This document shows, piece after piece, positions 11,172 through 50,704 of a stretch of DNA of 55,806 nt. The stretch is from positions 1-55,806 of the IMG/VR virus record IMGVR_UViG_3300037780_000011; one strand, given 5' to 3'. The position numbers and the translations under genes were made by a program. Below the pieces are notes generated by a model, which worked only from the letters and a program-made list of their open reading frames with translations, did no database searches and had not been told where the DNA came from. This DNA is from a virus (taxonomy: Duplodnaviria > Caudoviricetes). The first letter of the stretch is position 1. Each line of letters opens with the position of its first letter.

Positions 11172-11705
11172 ATGACCCCCGACATCCTCCTCTGGAAATC
11201 AGGCTGCGTGAAACGCTGGCATTGCAACATCGACCATAACCTGCGGGAAAGTGGCGATGACACGGCGTCCCACCAGTGGCGGGTGGCCATGCTGTTGCAG
11301 ATGTTGCATCCTTTGCCGTCCGCTCATCTGTTGGCCTGTGCGCTCACACATGACGTGCCGGAAGTCATCACGGGAGACATGCCAGCGCCCGCAAAGGCAG
11401 GTATGATGGGTGAAGTCATCGAAGCAGCAGAGAGCGAAGTTGCCGCCCATTGGGGTCTTCCCGTGCCGTCTGCAAAGGACAAGCAATGGGTCAAACTGTG
11501 CGACATGCTGGACGCTGTTCTGTGGGTCAAGTCGCGTGCGCCGTATCTGCTTATGGGTGGTGAGTGGGCCAGTAACGTGGATCAAATCCTGATCCTGGCA
11601 AAGGCGCTGGATGTCTATGAGAAGGTCAACGCCCTTTTGAACGGTTCCACAGGGTCAGGGCGCGCGCCTCAACATGGGGGCGTATCTTCGCAGGCAGTTT
11701 CTTGA
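11172..11705 (+). CDS. HD-domain nucleotide phosphohydrolase (YfbR/DatZ-like)
   Basis: RWH...SHQWRVAML...ALTHDVPEVITGDMPAPAK...KLCDMLD pattern. Confidence 0.8.
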   Translation: MTPDILLWKSGCVKRWHCNIDHNLRESGDDTASHQWRVAMLLQMLHPLPSAHLLACALTHDVPEVITGDMPAPAKAGMMGEVIEAAESEVAAHWGLPVPSAKDKQWVKLCDMLDAVLWVKSRAPYLLMGGEWASNVDQILILAKALDVYEKVNALLNGSTGSGRAPQHGGVSSQAVS

Positions 11706-47237: not shown

Positions 47238-47720
47238 TTGGTTGGTGTAAACGTAACTGTAACAGGAAACACTGTTCAGGCTGAAATTGATCTTATCGAG
47301 TCTGACATTAGGGAACTGAAAAAAGAAGTCCTCACAGGCTTGGCAAGAATAATTTCAGAAAAAAGCCCTGTAGACAGCGGAACATACGCTGTTAGCCATG
47401 AGGTGTCGGCTGGAAGCGGCATAACCGGCGGAACAAGATCAAGAAGCCCAAATGCTAAAAGAGTAAGTAAGGGTGGCGTTGCCCAATATCCAAACGCAAA
47501 ACAACAGGGCTTTCAGAACATGATTGGTGCAATCAACAGCATCAGCATGGATTCAAACAGTTTTGTGATAAGTAATCCAATGGATTATGCAGCACTTATT
47601 GAAGCTGGAGTATATGGTTTGAAAACTGGAGGTAAACCACCTCCCTATGCTTCCGCAATTCGTGAGGCGCCCAGTATCATTGAGCGCGTTGCACAACAGA
47701 TCGCCGCGAGGAACCGCTAA
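47238..47720 (+). CDS. Tail completion protein (HK97 gp10-like)
   Basis: SPVDSG...NPMDYAALIEAG. Confidence 0.7.
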   Translation: MVGVNVTVTGNTVQAEIDLIESDIRELKKEVLTGLARIISEKSPVDSGTYAVSHEVSAGSGITGGTRSRSPNAKRVSKGGVAQYPNAKQQGFQNMIGAINSISMDSNSFVISNPMDYAALIEAGVYGLKTGGKPPPYASAIREAPSIIERVAQQIAARNR

Positions 47721-48127
47721 TGCCCATCATGAACGACATCCGCGCAACGCTTGACGGTGCCTTGGCTGATTTGTCCAACCTACCGCCTATCGCGTTTGAG
47801 AACGCGCCATTCTCGCAGATCGCAGGATCGGCGCACCTGCGCACGTCCCTGTTCCTTACGTCCCGTCGCCCCGCCGTCCGTGGACCCAATCCGCAGCACC
47901 GCTATCAGGGCCTCTACCAGATCACCATTGCCACACCCACCGACATCGGGACGGGTGACGCCTTTGACTACGCTGACACGCTCATGGACGCTTTTGACGG
48001 CTCCACAGACATCATCGGTGACGCCGCCACTGTCTCCATTGAATACGCAGAACTCGGAACGCAGGTGTTTTCTGATCCGTTCTACCTGCTTCCGGTGCAG
48101 GTTGGGTGGTATGTGTATAGTGATTAG
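47720..48127 (+). CDS. Tail terminator protein
   Basis: IAFENAPF...GLYQITI; position before the tail tube gene. Confidence 0.75.
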   Translation: MPIMNDIRATLDGALADLSNLPPIAFENAPFSQIAGSAHLRTSLFLTSRRPAVRGPNPQHRYQGLYQITIATPTDIGTGDAFDYADTLMDAFDGSTDIIGDAATVSIEYAELGTQVFSDPFYLLPVQVGWYVYSD

Positions 48128-48153
48128 AAAGAGGGACGCCGAAGCGCCCCTCT
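48126..48153 (-). terminator. Terminator of the TIGR operon
   Basis: Minus strand AGAGGGGCGC-TTCG-GCGTCCCTCT-TTCT. Confidence 0.75.
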
Positions 48154-48154
48154 G

Positions 48155-48202
48155 AAGTGTGACTCGCGCGCTCTGGTTTACTCATGAAGCGTGGTCACAC
48201 TT
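48155..48202 (-). ncRNA. TIGR-type guide unit 5 (overlaps the tasA stop codon)
   Basis: AAGTGTGA-CCA-CGCTTCATG-AG-TAAA-CCA-GAGCGCGCG-AG-TCACACTT. Confidence 0.85.
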
Positions 48203-48962
48203 TTCTCCAAGCCAAAGTCAAATCCTTCAGCAATTCTTTCGTCATGTAGCGCATGGCGCGGTTGTGGGCGTGTCCTTTTGAGATGTCGCGCGCCAACTCG
48301 TATTCCTTTCGCTTATCATAGATAATACGATACCGTCCAGCGTTTTCATCTTTGCCTTGCGCCTTCAATAGCGGGTCAGCGATATTCCAGAACACCGAAC
48401 GACGCTCCGGGCTGTATCCATGTTCTAGTGCGGCTTCGCCCGCCACACGACGTTGACGACCTCCGTTGATGACAGCAAGCCCAGCCCGCTTCCACACACC
48501 CGCAACGGACGGGTAAACAGACAAGTCTCCGCACTCAGCGACAGTCTTTGCGAGAGCAAGCGCACCGAAACCCTTGATAGATTCCGTGAACGGATAGATC
48601 GGAACCTGCTTGCCAAGTTTCTCAAGTTGACGCTCGTATGACTTGCGTTGCTGTTCAAGCGGATCGCGTGCCATCAGAAGCGGCGCGACAGCCAGAGCCT
48701 CCGGGCCATCATAACCCTTGCCGATTGCGCCATAGAGTTTGGTGGCTTCCTCCTTGCTGCCGCCACAAAGACGCCGAAGGACGGCCTGCGCTTGCAGGGA
48801 CAGCCTGGACTGTGCGCGCACCATGTCCTGACGAAGCCGCCATGTCTCAACGATCTGGATGATAAGGGGATCGGCAAAGCGCCGATCCCCCTCAAAGCGA
48901 GGCTCTCTAACAATGGACTTCTGGCATGGGGTGGCCTCGCTAAACTCAATAAGGTCTTTCAT
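48195..48962 (-). CDS. tasA: TasA-like RNA-guided DNA-binding protein (IS110/Nop-related, no nuclease domain)
   Basis: Coiled-coil segment then IKGFGALALAKTVAECGDLSVYPSVAGVWKRAGLAV and GHAHNRAMRYMTKELL. No N-terminal DEDD RuvC domain and no SG catalytic loop. Flanked by dual-spacer stem-loops; AAGGAG RBS. Confidence 0.8.
   Translation of the reverse strand: MKDLIEFSEATPCQKSIVREPRFEGDRRFADPLIIQIVETWRLRQDMVRAQSRLSLQAQAVLRRLCGGSKEEATKLYGAIGKGYDGPEALAVAPLLMARDPLEQQRKSYERQLEKLGKQVPIYPFTESIKGFGALALAKTVAECGDLSVYPSVAGVWKRAGLAVINGGRQRRVAGEAALEHGYSPERRSVFWNIADPLLKAQGKDENAGRYRIIYDKRKEYELARDISKGHAHNRAMRYMTKELLKDLTLAWRKV
48896..48941 (-). ncRNA. TIGR-type guide unit 4 (inside the tasA coding sequence)
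   Basis: AGCGAGG-CCA-CCCCATGCC-AG-AAGT-CCA-TTGTTAGAG-AG-CCTCGCT. Confidence 0.8.
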
Positions 48963-48983
48963 GTGTATCTCCTTTTATTAACC

Positions 48984-49027
48984 TTGTGACTACGTTTTTT
49001 TGGGTGACTGTCATTAGGTGGTCACAA
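48984..49027 (-). ncRNA. TIGR-type guide unit 3
   Basis: TTGTGA-CCA-CCTAATGAC-AG-TCAC-CCA-AAAAAACGT-AG-TCACAA. Confidence 0.85.
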
Positions 49028-49036
49028 AGTATGGGT

Positions 49037-49107
49037 TTTCAGGGTTTGGTGTGGCTTGAATCCGTTGGTTTCCAATCGGCGGTTGGCTCACTCTCCAAAC
49101 CCTGAAA
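49037..49107 (-). ncRNA. TIGR-type guide unit 2
   Basis: TTTCAGGGTTTGGAGAGTGAG-CCA-ACCGCCGAT-TG-GAAA-CCA-ACGGATTCA-AG-CCACACCAAACCCTGAAA. Confidence 0.85.
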
Positions 49108-49111
49108 CTAT

Positions 49112-49165
49112 TGCGTGGTTGGCTAATTCCTGGCGGATTGCTTCACCCCATTGGCCAACCACGCA
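49112..49165 (-). ncRNA. TIGR-type guide unit 1
   Basis: TGCGTGGTTGG-CCA-ATGGGGTGA-AG-CAAT-CCG-CCAGGAATT-AG-CCAACCACGCA. Confidence 0.85.
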
Positions 49166-49170
49166 GCGGC

Positions 49171-49659
49171 CTAAGCCGCAACTCTGACCGCTTCCAAGTC
49201 GTCCGGTTTGAACGCCTCGGCCACGGTCTGTTTTTCTGTCATCTTCTCGGCAACGATACCGAAGAAGCGCGCCTTGTCGGCCATGTGGTCCGACATCTTG
49301 CTATAGTAGTCGCGTTCATCAACGACTTCTTCCTTCATGGCATCCCCGAGACGCTTACCGGAACGCAAACGCATATCCATGATTGTCAGGCTGTTGATCT
49401 GCGCCAAGACTTTCGCGCGTTCATCCGGCGCTACTGGACGTTCCCAGTTTGCAACAGTCTTGTTCCAGATGTTCTTTCGCTGTCCGCGCTTTGCGTCACC
49501 GATAAGACCATTAACAACGGACCATTCATGCGGCTGCATGACGGCGCGATACAATGCGCGGTCATTTTCCATCATCCGCAACATATTCTCACATGCTTGT
49601 TTGACGCTATCCGCACCATCCCAAGCTGCCTCAATGGCTTCTTTCACGTTCATGCTCAA
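49171..49659 (-). CDS. Uncharacterised helical protein, first gene of the TIGR operon
   Basis: 162-aa ORF; the AGGAG RBS favours the ATG at 49653; between the promoter and guide unit 1. Confidence 0.8.
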   Translation of the reverse strand: MSMNVKEAIEAAWDGADSVKQACENMLRMMENDRALYRAVMQPHEWSVVNGLIGDAKRGQRKNIWNKTVANWERPVAPDERAKVLAQINSLTIMDMRLRSGKRLGDAMKEEVVDERDYYSKMSDHMADKARFFGIVAEKMTEKQTVAEAFKPDDLEAVRVAA

Positions 49660-49681
49660 CTCCTAACGAATCGCAAAGCCA

Positions 49682-49711
49682 CCCAACCACACTCCCAACC
49701 GATTCGTCAAG
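49682..49711 (-). promoter_or_regulatory. Promoter of the CTTGACGAATC class (copy 4), upstream of the TIGR operon
   Basis: Minus strand CTTGACGAATC-N10-GTGGTT. Confidence 0.65.
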
Positions 49712-49789
49712 CGCGAATCACGACGTGTTGTTGCACGGCAACAGTCAACCTGATATTATCGCAACAACGATTTTATCTTGGAGACTGTC

Positions 49790-50704
49790 ATGGCGTTCGC
49801 CCAGGGATCACGTAGCGCATTGGCCGTAGGTGTAGAAGGCACGTTCGGAACGGAAGCCTCCTCCTATGACCTTGTTCCCATCAAGACCCATTCGCTTGAT
49901 CTGACGAAAGAGCGCTTGCAAGGCATGGACATTCAGGCGGACCGTATGCCGCGTGTCAGCCGTCACGGGAACCGCCAAGCCGCAGGGTCCATCGAAGTTG
50001 ACCTCCGCATGGGGAACTACGACGACTTCCTTGAATCGGCCATGCTGTCCACCTTTGACAGCAACGATGAAATGACCATCGGCACTACGCCGAAGTTCCT
50101 GACTATCGAAGATCGCCTCGCGGACATTACGCAGTATCGCCTGTTCACCGGCATGGCTGTATCGACCGCCACGTTCAGCATCGCGCCGAACCAGATGGTC
50201 AACACCACCTTTGAAATGGTCGGCAAGAACGCATCCATCAGCGGCACGCCTAAGTCTGCATCTGCTGCTACCACCAACACCCCATTTGACAGCTATAACG
50301 GCTCTATCTACGAAGGTGGTGTCGGCACGTCTGACCTGATCGAGATTGTCACTTCGGTTGAGTTCAGCATTACCAACTCGTTCGCACCTACTTTCGTGAT
50401 CGGTGACGACACCGCTCCGCAACTTGAATATGGCCGGTCGATCATCGAAGGCACCATGACGGTGTATTTCGAGGATGCGACTCTTATCAACAAGTTTCTC
50501 AACGAGACTGAGAGCGAATTGCAAGTTAGTGTCGCGGAACCCGGTGGGACCAACCCTTACACGTTCTACTTCCCGCGCATCAAATTTAACGGTGCATCAG
50601 TTCCCCTAGCAAACGAACAGTCCCGCACAATTGAACTGCCATTTGAGGCACTCCATGACAGCGTAGAAGGCACCCAGATGCTTCTCACGCGCTCGTCCGC
50701 CTGA
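49790..50704 (+). CDS. Major tail tube protein
   Basis: MAFAQGSRS...RHGNRQAAGSI...FLNETES; GGAG RBS; upstream of the chaperones and tape measure. Confidence 0.9.
   Translation: MAFAQGSRSALAVGVEGTFGTEASSYDLVPIKTHSLDLTKERLQGMDIQADRMPRVSRHGNRQAAGSIEVDLRMGNYDDFLESAMLSTFDSNDEMTIGTTPKFLTIEDRLADITQYRLFTGMAVSTATFSIAPNQMVNTTFEMVGKNASISGTPKSASAATTNTPFDSYNGSIYEGGVGTSDLIEIVTSVEFSITNSFAPTFVIGDDTAPQLEYGRSIIEGTMTVYFEDATLINKFLNETESELQVSVAEPGGTNPYTFYFPRIKFNGASVPLANEQSRTIELPFEALHDSVEGTQMLLTRSSA

Follow-up and report, generated by a model that had tools for sequence, protein, structure and literature searches.

The window analysed here, a stretch of 55,806 nucleotides, is the near-complete genome of a marine-type tailed phage and carries a stem-loop TIGR-TasA cassette of about 1.6 kb. 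The cassette consists of an upstream gene (ORF162), a gene for a Tas protein (tasA) and five tigRNA units placed around and inside the tas gene. Its neighbours are a tail terminator gene (47720-48127) and a minor tail gene (49778-50704), both on the plus strand, and nine open reading frames of at least 120 aa lie between 47238 and 50704. The features are:

48119-49721, minus strand: module of ORF162, array and tasA, inserted against plus-strand tail genes
49171-49659, minus strand: ORF162, 162 aa, unannotated, stop codon 5 nt before unit 1
49112-49165, minus strand: tigRNA unit 1, spacer A 49143-49151, spacer B 49125-49133
49037-49107, minus strand: tigRNA unit 2, spacer A 49075-49083, spacer B 49057-49065
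48981-49030, minus strand: tigRNA unit 3, spacer A 49010-49018, spacer B 48992-49000
48195-48962, minus strand: tasA, 255 aa, coiled coil and Nop/IS110-RBD-like C-terminal domain
48896-48941, minus strand: tigRNA unit 4, spacer A 48923-48931, spacer B 48905-48913
48155-48202, minus strand: tigRNA unit 5, spacer A 48183-48191, spacer B 48165-48173
48130-48153, minus strand: GC-rich hairpin with UUCG loop directly 3' of unit 5, read from the sequence

The protein encoded by tasA belongs to the Tas family. In a phmmer search it matches the TIGR-TasR structure 9mty (PDB, chain A) with an E-value of 6.3e-12 over residues 107-248, and the top nine Foldseek matches of its AF2 model (pLDDT 82, long helices at residues 32-65 and 87-119, residues 1-21 disordered) are all TasR or TasH proteins, with E-values from 7e-6 to 7e-4 over 219-248 aligned columns. 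TasR (9mty, E 7e-6) is followed in this search by TasH (9w03/9w04), then IS621 and then Nop5. The Pfam search returned no nuclease family, only a sub-threshold match to PF02371, and neither Pfam nor the AF2 model revealed an N-terminal DEDD/RuvC catalytic domain, so that the protein is not placed in the IS110 family; among PHROG families it matches phrog_4285 ('transposase', E 7e-21). The initial annotation had described the locus as a TIGR-Tas system with a nuclease-less effector, and the protein is indeed a TIGR-Tas effector of the nuclease-less (TasA) subtype.

When both strands of the window were scanned in full with a strict motif, six matches were obtained, five of them on the minus strand (49123-49154, 49055-49086, 48990-49021, 48903-48934, and 48163-48194). 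On this strand, which is the tas strand, the units follow the consensus CCA-N9-[A/U]G-N4-CC[A/G]-N9-AG, and all five fold as a closing stem with an open spacer loop; in four of the five the closing stem is an ungapped run of 7-11 pairs, and every stem differs in sequence. Unit 1, whose spacer A reads ATGGGGTGA on the minus strand, is closed by 10 Watson-Crick pairs and a terminal G-U pair (fold z = -4.9). Unit 2 has an extended stem with a perfect 13-bp outer helix and a bulged inner helix (z = -6.5), and its loop is UG-GAAA-CCA. Unit 3 (z = -2.3) directly precedes the ribosome-binding site and the start codon of tas, unit 4 (z = -2.4) lies inside the tas reading frame at about codons 8-23, where the encoded residues fall in the disordered N-terminus of TasA (pLDDT below 50 for residues 1-21), and the 5' stem arm of unit 5 (z = -3.8) extends into the end of tas, overlapping its last codon and stop codon. 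Motif matches on the plus strand were rejected as units at 47653-47684, where there is no stem, and at 11269-11300, where the stem is mostly G-U and far from tas and the match was treated as chance.

The same layout is found on the tas strand in 33 closing-stem units of relatives' loci (L001, L008, L014, and L015), and differing stem arms were tabulated for the 38 units with closing stems in the window and these loci. With a looser stem filter, the window and the same four loci give 41 motif matches; a looser scan also returned scattered short-stem matches on the non-tas strand. Box C is CCA at 37 of the 41 5' positions and at 29 of the 41 loop positions, and the ungapped stems contain 306 Watson-Crick, 5 G-U and 1 A-C pairs. 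These paired stems, together with the fold z-scores, set the units apart from chance matches, and the box and spacer plan with variable palindromic closing stems, which recurs in the relatives, places the array in the stem-loop type. In L001, the closest relative, other spacers are found in the same scaffold, and one unit sits at the same place as unit 4, inside tas, again with other spacers. Among related phages in metagenomes the spacer positions differ and tas is kept, and the spacers vary between runs; this variation within a kept scaffold is as expected for guides under changing selection.

Metagenome contigs of related phages skip the module at slightly different junctions, joining 48118 to 49722/49725 (run X5), 48118 to 49658 (run X6), or 48129 to 49685 (run X4), and G327, the closest relative, has the module at another position and the two tail genes side by side. 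Phages related to this one, with and without the cassette, are present in the same metagenome runs; run X1 contains the stretch in full and runs X2-X9 contain parts of it. At the "empty site" of relatives, the sequence found in place of the module was compared by eye with all five predicted targets; the best agreement, 12 of 18 positions for guide 2, was judged to be chance. A search upstream of the module found no promoter. The hairpin at 48130-48153 is a possible candidate for the end of a minus-strand transcript; the terminator scan left it uncalled because its T tract is too short.

ORF162 accompanies tas in most relatives. Of 11 relatives' loci searched with tblastn, 9 have a homologue immediately upstream of tas (E ≤ 3e-6 in eight, E 0.006 in the ninth), and the homologues are 24-58% identical in alignment A2. 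Its gain and loss among related phages in metagenomes go hand in hand with those of tas. The ORF162 protein matched no Pfam or PHROG family; its model is all-helical (pLDDT 80), and a fold search with it returned no PDB match and no ParB-like structure. None of eight members of the ORF162 family matched a ParB family (Pfam, E ≤ 0.1), and the locus is thus not assigned to the TasParB loci. Faure et al. 2025 (PMC12045711) describe TasA as having no clear protein partners except an occasional ParB-like gene.

Judged by its sequence, the locus is a further stem-loop TIGR-TasA system, TasA proteins being already known elsewhere as RNA-guided repressors. By their published descriptions, PlTasA (from a Peromyscus leucopus gut contig; PMC12045711, 10.64898/2026.08.11.744272) and BlTasA and MbTasA (10.64898/2026.09.09.750476) share with it the nuclease-less Tas protein, the phage setting, the position of units upstream, downstream and inside a disordered segment of tas, and the 9-nt loop region between spacers. 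Unlike these systems, the locus has only five units, its box D is mostly AG rather than UG, and its tas gene is accompanied by the conserved 162-aa upstream gene. The dual-repeat TIGR-TasR/TasH systems (9mty; 9w03, 9w04) provide the best sequence and fold matches and have the same CCA/NG boxes and tandem-spacer logic; however, they carry RuvC or HNH, cut DNA, and have edge and loop repeats in guides of a fixed 36 nt, whereas the present locus has no nuclease, and stems take the place of the edge repeats. The IS110/IS621 bridge-RNA recombinases have a related C-terminal RNA-binding domain (sub-threshold PF02371; phrog_4285; Foldseek 8wt6 and 9t56, E 0.02-0.06), but no DEDD/RuvC domain was detected here, the RNAs are dual-spacer stem-loops and not a bridge RNA, and the fold scores are far weaker than those to Tas. 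Archaeal and eukaryotic box C/D snoRNPs (Nop5/Nop56/58) share with the locus a Nop-type domain and the placing of C and D boxes on either side of the guides; however, the fold matches are distant (E 0.17 or weaker), the targets here would be DNA and not rRNA, and the packing of reading frames at 47238-50704 leaves no room in the module for an extra gene the size of fibrillarin.

The initial annotation had predicted an 18-bp target for each guide by joining spacer A to the reverse complement of spacer B, in that order (A+rcB). We recomputed the five 18-mers from the coordinates and obtained exact agreement, and the span assigned to them, 48165-49151, has the outermost spacer bases of unit 5 and unit 1 as its two ends. 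The order of the two halves would also agree with the published TIGR-Tas geometry. Faure et al. (PMC12045711) place the spacer downstream of box C and describe, for TasR, cleavage at spacer base 5 with 8-nt 3' overhangs, and Guan et al. (10.64898/2026.08.11.744272) locate both box C and the first base of the tigRNA to pair at the unwinding junction; in our own working, these overhang and junction geometries as described would fit A+rcB only. Xu et al. (10.64898/2026.09.09.750476) report that each spacer pairs 9 nt, that stem-loop tigRNAs may sit inside tas in disordered regions, and that the short spacers lead to many false-positive targets. They also report that TasA and dead TasR repress a reporter and chromosomal genes without cutting. 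By analogy with the other TasA proteins in that preprint, silencing rather than cutting, as the annotation had suggested, would be the likely outcome here too.

The phage genome contains no A+rcB site with up to three mismatches and gaps of 0-2 bp apart from one at guide 3's own locus (48982-49000; two mismatches and a 1-bp gap), which bears out the earlier observation that only half matches occur within the phage. At up to four mismatches, the 55.8 kb hold 7 sites against 6.7 ± 2.7 in 200 shuffled-spacer sets, and five related phage records (234 kb) contain no targets above chance. Exact matches in IMG/VR, with gaps of 0-2, number 3, 1, 0, 0 and 14 for guides 1-5, which is not above chance; their contexts are unrelated, two of the three guide-1 matches are the same sequence, and the swapped-order controls gave 0 and 6 matches.

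A further search, at up to two mismatches, covered 23 genomes from the genus to which G001, a MAG titled Planktomarina sp., belongs. Without gaps, A+rcB gave 23 matches (8, 1, 6, 1, and 7 for guides 1-5), every one at two mismatches and none standing out; the number expected under a Markov model is 16.5-18.9, and recurrence of the same site in orthologues raises the observed number. With gaps of 1-2 bp, guides 1-4 gave 10, 7, 7 and 3 matches, including one at a single mismatch, and about 1.9 matches at up to one mismatch are expected over all guides and gaps in these genomes. The single-mismatch match, of guide 4 with a 1-bp gap (G315:C70:372-390), lies inside an unremarkable 438-aa reading frame and was set aside, the count being at chance. 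Among 301 genomes of the family, searched with guide 1 only, there were 82 matches against 54-57 expected, none exact and four at one mismatch. These near matches had been considered as 16S rRNA, but their contexts are protein-coding genes; a recurring one in a short-chain-dehydrogenase-like gene would need an in-frame TGA to match in full. The reversed-pattern control of this search gave 0 against 82 and was left unused as a null because of its composition, the Markov model expecting about 5 reversed against 54-57 real matches. Exact searches of all species genomes with guides 2 and 3 only, and of metagenome contigs with guide 3 only, found no target above chance. In the Microvirga MAG that carries L014 on a 284-kb contig, three of the six L014 guides have no match at up to one mismatch. 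With the halves swapped, guide 1 gave 8 matches in the 23 genomes against about 8 expected, guides 2-5 gave 3, 0, 1 and 1 in five genomes, and the phage genome has no site at up to two mismatches and one at three, which is at chance. The enrichment of paired matches over controls that the initial annotation looked to was thus absent from every search, whichever spacer order it used.

The host of the phage bears on where such targets should be sought. Since an 18-mer is informative only against a few tens of megabases, naming targets first requires knowledge of the host or of the source community. The phage RNR is 83% identical to that of Roseobacter phage CRP-3, and neither CRP-3 nor CRP-212 has a match to the tail proteins of the phage; a host assignment from the likeness to CRP-3 would be a weak one. 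A search of species genomes with the Tas protein, a megablast of 24 kb against phages, and a search for tRNA genes in the phage all returned nothing. The earlier proposal that the targets would lie in the host or in rival elements draws only on their absence from the phage. Most likely, the natural targets reside in DNA absent from the searched collections, such as that of the real host strain, its plasmids or co-occurring phages.

Taken together, we think that the module probably works as a stem-loop TIGR-TasA cassette whose five guides direct TasA to sites that are bound and blocked but left uncut. ORF162, the first three units, tasA with unit 4 inside its 5' coding region, and unit 5 would most likely be transcribed jointly from the minus strand, and the transcript would be cut into five tigRNAs. 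Each tigRNA would be held in a TasA dimer, where its two 9-nt spacers would pair, by analogy with other TIGR-Tas systems, with opposite strands of one 18-bp DNA site, whose top strand would read as spacer A and then the reverse complement of spacer B. The complex would then bind and block this site, for example by repressing transcription; binding or blocking is proposed rather than cutting because TasA has no nuclease domain.

The absence of enrichment in any search could also mean that the guides currently have no cognate target, with spacers arising by duplication of units, mutating and drifting, and the cassette persisting for other reasons or as a reservoir. Two units of L001 share seven of nine spacer-A bases and the same loop, which resembles duplication followed by divergence, and the discussions of Faure et al. 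(PMC12045711) and Xu et al. (10.64898/2026.09.09.750476) know of no adaptation machinery for TIGR. However, the scaffold is strictly kept in its boxes, 9-nt lengths and paired stems while the spacers change, which argues for selection on working guides, and the collections were searched without the host strain and source sample; we therefore regard guides without targets as unlikely. That the guides act on imperfect sites in the phage or the host appears more improbable still. Guide 3 might regulate its own locus upstream of the tas start, since its self match spans the stem, CT and its own spacer-B DNA, and TasR is described as tolerating 1-2-bp gaps and edge mismatches; however, half of this match is automatic, and the mismatches fall at spacer-A bases 4-5, adjoining the seed described for TasR. 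Guide 3 might otherwise act on tatC, whose orthologues hold four of its six 2-mismatch matches. This candidate was rejected: the two-mismatch site occurs in 3 of the 23 genomes, the 18 covered orthologues encode L-K-T-R-F and differ from guide 3 at 2-8 positions, all 18 have a Lys codon at the position where pairing with the guide would call for Met, and no tatC site is among the exact matches in species genomes or metagenome contigs. The match counts, moreover, equal chance.

Two further explanations concern how the locus is read and what TasA does once bound. If the RNAs were read from the plus strand, or the halves joined in the other order, the true targets would be rc(B)+A, and the CU...UGG that brackets each spacer on the plus strand is similar to the CUU/UG boxes described for PateTasR (10.64898/2026.09.09.750476). 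We consider this very improbable, since on the tas strand each spacer has the published CCA (box C) before it and NG (box D) after it, and the loop region measures 9 nt, which holds for the window and for the 33 closing-stem units of relatives alike; the units abut and enter tas on that strand, where G-U outnumber A-C pairs 5:1, and the swapped-order searches of the 23 genomes, the five genomes, IMG/VR and the phage found nothing either. It is also conceivable, though we give it little credence, that TasA and the conserved ORF162 protein form a two-protein system with an output beyond simple repression, such as recruitment, guide processing or action on RNA. The position of ORF162 directly upstream of tas, its joint gain and loss with tas, and the contrast with the mostly partnerless TasA described by Faure et al. 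(PMC12045711) speak for such a system; however, no family, fold or motif points to an activity of the protein, and a conserved neighbourhood alone is no proof of joint function.

What TIGR-Tas systems target in nature is an acknowledged open question, and the cassette of this phage offers a small and clean case, with five defined guides and a nuclease-less effector, in which the null result puts numbers on the target problem. As a speculation that we hold to be rather unlikely, the TasA clade may be a two-gene system in which an ORF162-family protein is obligatory for guide maturation or output, the cassette moves between phage genomes, and the fast-changing guides are directed against rival phages or plasmids that share the same ponds and coastal waters and are in no database yet. 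In that case, a dedicated accessory protein combined with a traceable natural presence/absence polymorphism would be described for the first time in a TIGR system. The relatives with and without the cassette in the same runs, the variation of spacers from run to run, and the conserved upstream gene together give a starting point for asking about the natural role of the system.

The window is a whole phage contig of 55.8 kb (53% G+C) whose genes include those for a terminase, portal, major head protein, tail proteins, primase, helicase and ribonucleotide reductase (RNR). A minus-strand insert sits between two plus-strand tail genes and is read in the order ORF162 (the gene upstream of tas), three hairpin units, the tas ORF, a fifth unit and a GC-rich hairpin. 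The features are as follows.

47720-48127, plus strand: tail terminator gene (PF13554), one flank of the module
49171-49659, minus strand: ORF162, first gene of the insert
48195-48962, minus strand: tas ORF (255 aa), with the fourth unit within its first 23 codons
3' end of tas, minus strand: fifth unit, its stem overlapping the tas stop codon
Last in the insert, after the fifth unit, minus strand: GC-rich hairpin
49778-50704, plus strand: minor tail gene (phrog_290), the other flank of the module

Elsewhere in the window, each end of the plus-strand ORF at 28172-29188 matches thymidylate synthase families, and its central part (residues about 104-239) matches an endonuclease/HNH family. This arrangement points to an insertion of homing-endonuclease or intein-like type within a thymidylate synthase gene.

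The 255-aa protein is a TasA. In a sequence search its residues 107-248 match the TIGR-TasR structure PDB 9mty (E 6.3e-12), and the nine best Foldseek matches of its AlphaFold model (pLDDT 82; residues 1-21 disordered) are all TasR and TasH structures (E 7e-6 to 7e-4), followed by IS621/IS110 recombinases and then Nop5. The Pfam search found no nuclease domain in the protein, its only match being a sub-threshold one to the IS110 C-terminal family. Relatives occur at nine loci in IMG/VR (29-72% identity) and further ones in three MAGs. At the related locus L008, eleven units (1160-1786) lie inside one long open frame (1057-2706) that runs into tas and spans 539 aa counted from its earliest ATG. 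Translation may take in the array as a long N-terminal extension; the alternative is that tas truly begins at the GTG at 1903.

The five window units look like real guides. Both strands were scanned for the strict motif CC[AG]-N9-[AT]G-N4-CC[AG]-N9-[AT]G, and five of the six matches fall on the tas strand, in the 1 kb that surrounds tas; the sixth has no stem. All five fold into an open spacer loop held by a closing stem (z -2.3 to -6.5), the stems being ungapped runs of 7-11 pairs in four units, with unit 2 closed by a 13-bp outer helix and a bulged inner helix. The same plan recurs on the tas strand of L001 (the locus of the closest relative), L008, L014 (in a Microvirga MAG) and L015, which together hold 33 units with closing stems; a looser scan of the relatives' loci also gave scattered short-stem matches on the opposite strand. 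The stem arms of the closing-stem units vary from unit to unit across the window and these four loci. In a pooled set of 41 motif matches from the same five sources, selected with a looser stem filter than the 33, box C is CCA at 37 of the 5' positions and 29 of the loop positions, and the stems contain 306 Watson-Crick, 5 G-U and 1 A-C pairs. That the guides are read from the tas (minus) strand is inferred from three things: how the boxes are ordered, where the units lie with respect to tas, and the excess of G-U over A-C pairs (5:1). Unit 4 encodes residues about 8-23 of Tas, the disordered N-terminus, which agrees with the intragenic stem-loop tigRNAs reported by Xu et al. (bioRxiv 10.64898/2026.09.09.750476); L001 also has a unit at this position, with different spacers.

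The initial annotation had predicted five 18-bp targets by joining spacer A to the reverse complement of spacer B (A+rcB), and all five strings were reproduced exactly from the unit coordinates of guides 1-5. Published geometry appears to favour this order. Faure et al. (PMC12045711) give box C as CCA and box D as UG; the DNA is cut at base five downstream of box C, which leaves 3' overhangs of 8 nt. In a stem-loop TasA, according to Guan et al. (bioRxiv 10.64898/2026.08.11.744272), box C and the guide base that pairs first are both found at the junction where the DNA unwinds, and each spacer forms nine base pairs. Both spacers would thus have their 5' ends on the outside of the site, as in A+rcB and not in the swapped order (rcB+A).

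The phage itself, said in that annotation to hold only half matches, was searched with gaps of 0-2. At up to two mismatches the only A+rcB site is guide 3's own locus (48982-49000), matched with two mismatches and a 1-bp gap across stem, CT and spacer-B DNA. Half of this match is automatic. The site is some 40 nt upstream of where tas starts and might be one to which guide 3 itself binds, but the mismatches are near the seed. At up to four mismatches there were 7 A+rcB sites versus 6.7 +/- 2.7 for shuffled spacers, and 13 in the swapped order. In the closest relative, no self target at up to two mismatches was found for any of its three guides. Exact A-N{0,2}-rcB searches of IMG/VR returned 3, 1, 0, 0 and 14 matches for guides 1-5, all in unrelated contexts (swapped-order controls: 0 for guide 1, 6 for guide 5).

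Table. Matches in 234 kb of related phage DNA (CRP-3, CRP-212 and three whole Tas-bearing IMG/VR contigs) at up to three; up to four mismatches
A+rcB: 2; 29
Swapped order: 3; 26
Same-strand control 1: 1; 26
Same-strand control 2: 4; 31
Shuffled spacers: 2.1 +/- 1.5; 27 +/- 6

Clues to the host are an RNR 83% identical to that of Roseobacter phage CRP-3 and 81% to that of CRP-212, both of which lack Tas and the window phage's tail proteins, and a MAG titled Planktomarina sp. that contains a phage-like RNR contig; metagenomes holding window DNA are from pond, aquaculture, algae and marine sources. Short contigs with phage-like RNR (L016, L017 and L027; 76-92% identical to the RNR of the window) occur in MAGs titled Mycobacterium, Nitrosopumilus and Planktomarina, and are probably phage sequences that ended up in these bins.

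The set of candidate hosts comprised 23 genomes (about 59 Mb) of the genus of the Planktomarina sp. MAG. Here A+rcB gave 8, 1, 6, 1 and 7 matches for guides 1-5 at up to two mismatches, and none at zero or one mismatch for any guide; these 23 matches, a number inflated by orthologous repeats, compare with 16.5-18.9 expected under a Markov model whose training set was 104 kb from these genomes. With gaps of 1-2, guides 1-4 had 10, 7, 7 and 3 matches (for guides 2-4 about twice the gap-0 expectation) and guide 5 had 6 in 5 genomes; a one-mismatch match among those of guides 1-4 was dismissed, as it lies inside an ordinary ORF. The swapped order gave 8 for guide 1 versus about 8 expected in the 23 genomes, and 3, 0, 1 and 1 for guides 2-5 in 5 genomes. 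The sole lead, tatC, was rejected as a target: in each of the 18 orthologues covered, Lys is conserved at the position for which a match to the guide requires Met.

Among 301 family genomes, guide 1 had 82 matches (none exact, four with one mismatch) versus 54-57 expected. An exact search with guide 3 of all 185,579 species genomes gave three matches, which lie in MAGs of Treponema and Methanoregula, and one of metagenome contigs gave three, none related. Guide 2 with gaps matched 100 stretches over many phyla in the species genomes, with no roseobacter among the 80 listed. L014 served as a test of host targeting since its carrier is known, the locus being on a 284-kb contig of the Microvirga MAG; for three of the six guides at L014, that 5-Mb MAG contains no site at up to one mismatch.

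By the criterion that the initial annotation had set, paired matches are not enriched over controls in any orientation in the DNA searched, which included candidates for the host that the initial annotation had considered, with competing mobile elements, the probable place of the targets. No convincing target is thus present in the DNA searched, which is not proof that none exists. The power of an 18-mer is limited: chance alone should yield exact matches in searches larger than a few tens of gigabases, and matches at up to two mismatches beyond about 20 Mb. The result therefore covers the searched DNA only. A true site would seldom be kept in relatives at 75-80% identity between species; the same difficulty with target finding is named in the Discussion of Xu et al.

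The module at 48119-49721 behaves like a movable cassette. Three metagenome runs contain contigs in which 48118/48129 is joined straight to 49658-49725, so relatives without the whole module exist, and two joins in run X5 carry 13 or 19 other letters in place of 48119-49721; in G327, the closest relative, the two tail genes sit side by side and the module is elsewhere. Between runs, spacers of units 5, 4 and 2 (48165-48191, 48905-48931 and 49057-49065) show substitutions and paired indels, and tas shows scattered single-base differences; one metagenome contig has 48909-49018 and 49124-49262 replaced by other sequence. Spacer A of unit 1, ATGGGGTGA (49143-49151), is identical to spacer A of a Microvirga unit (L014 3955-3963), whose Tas is only 50% identical to that of the window. 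This is the sole identity in about 2,170 cross-locus spacer pairs (uniform-chance p about 0.008), and no other such pair is within one mismatch.

In 9 of 11 related loci an ORF162 homologue lies immediately upstream of tas; the homologues are 24-58% identical in the family alignment A2 and share the motif G-x-x-[LI]-[GA]-[DE]-A, with the G and A invariant in all eight rows of that alignment. The 162-aa model is all-helical, and searches of Pfam, PHROG and PDB folds gave no match. TasA is described by Faure et al. as without clear partners, except an occasional ParB-like gene; ORF162 is possibly a dedicated partner of the window's TasA clade. The best-supported reading is that the system would act as an RNA-guided DNA-binding repressor, a behaviour demonstrated by Xu et al. 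for MbTasA and dead TasR proteins.
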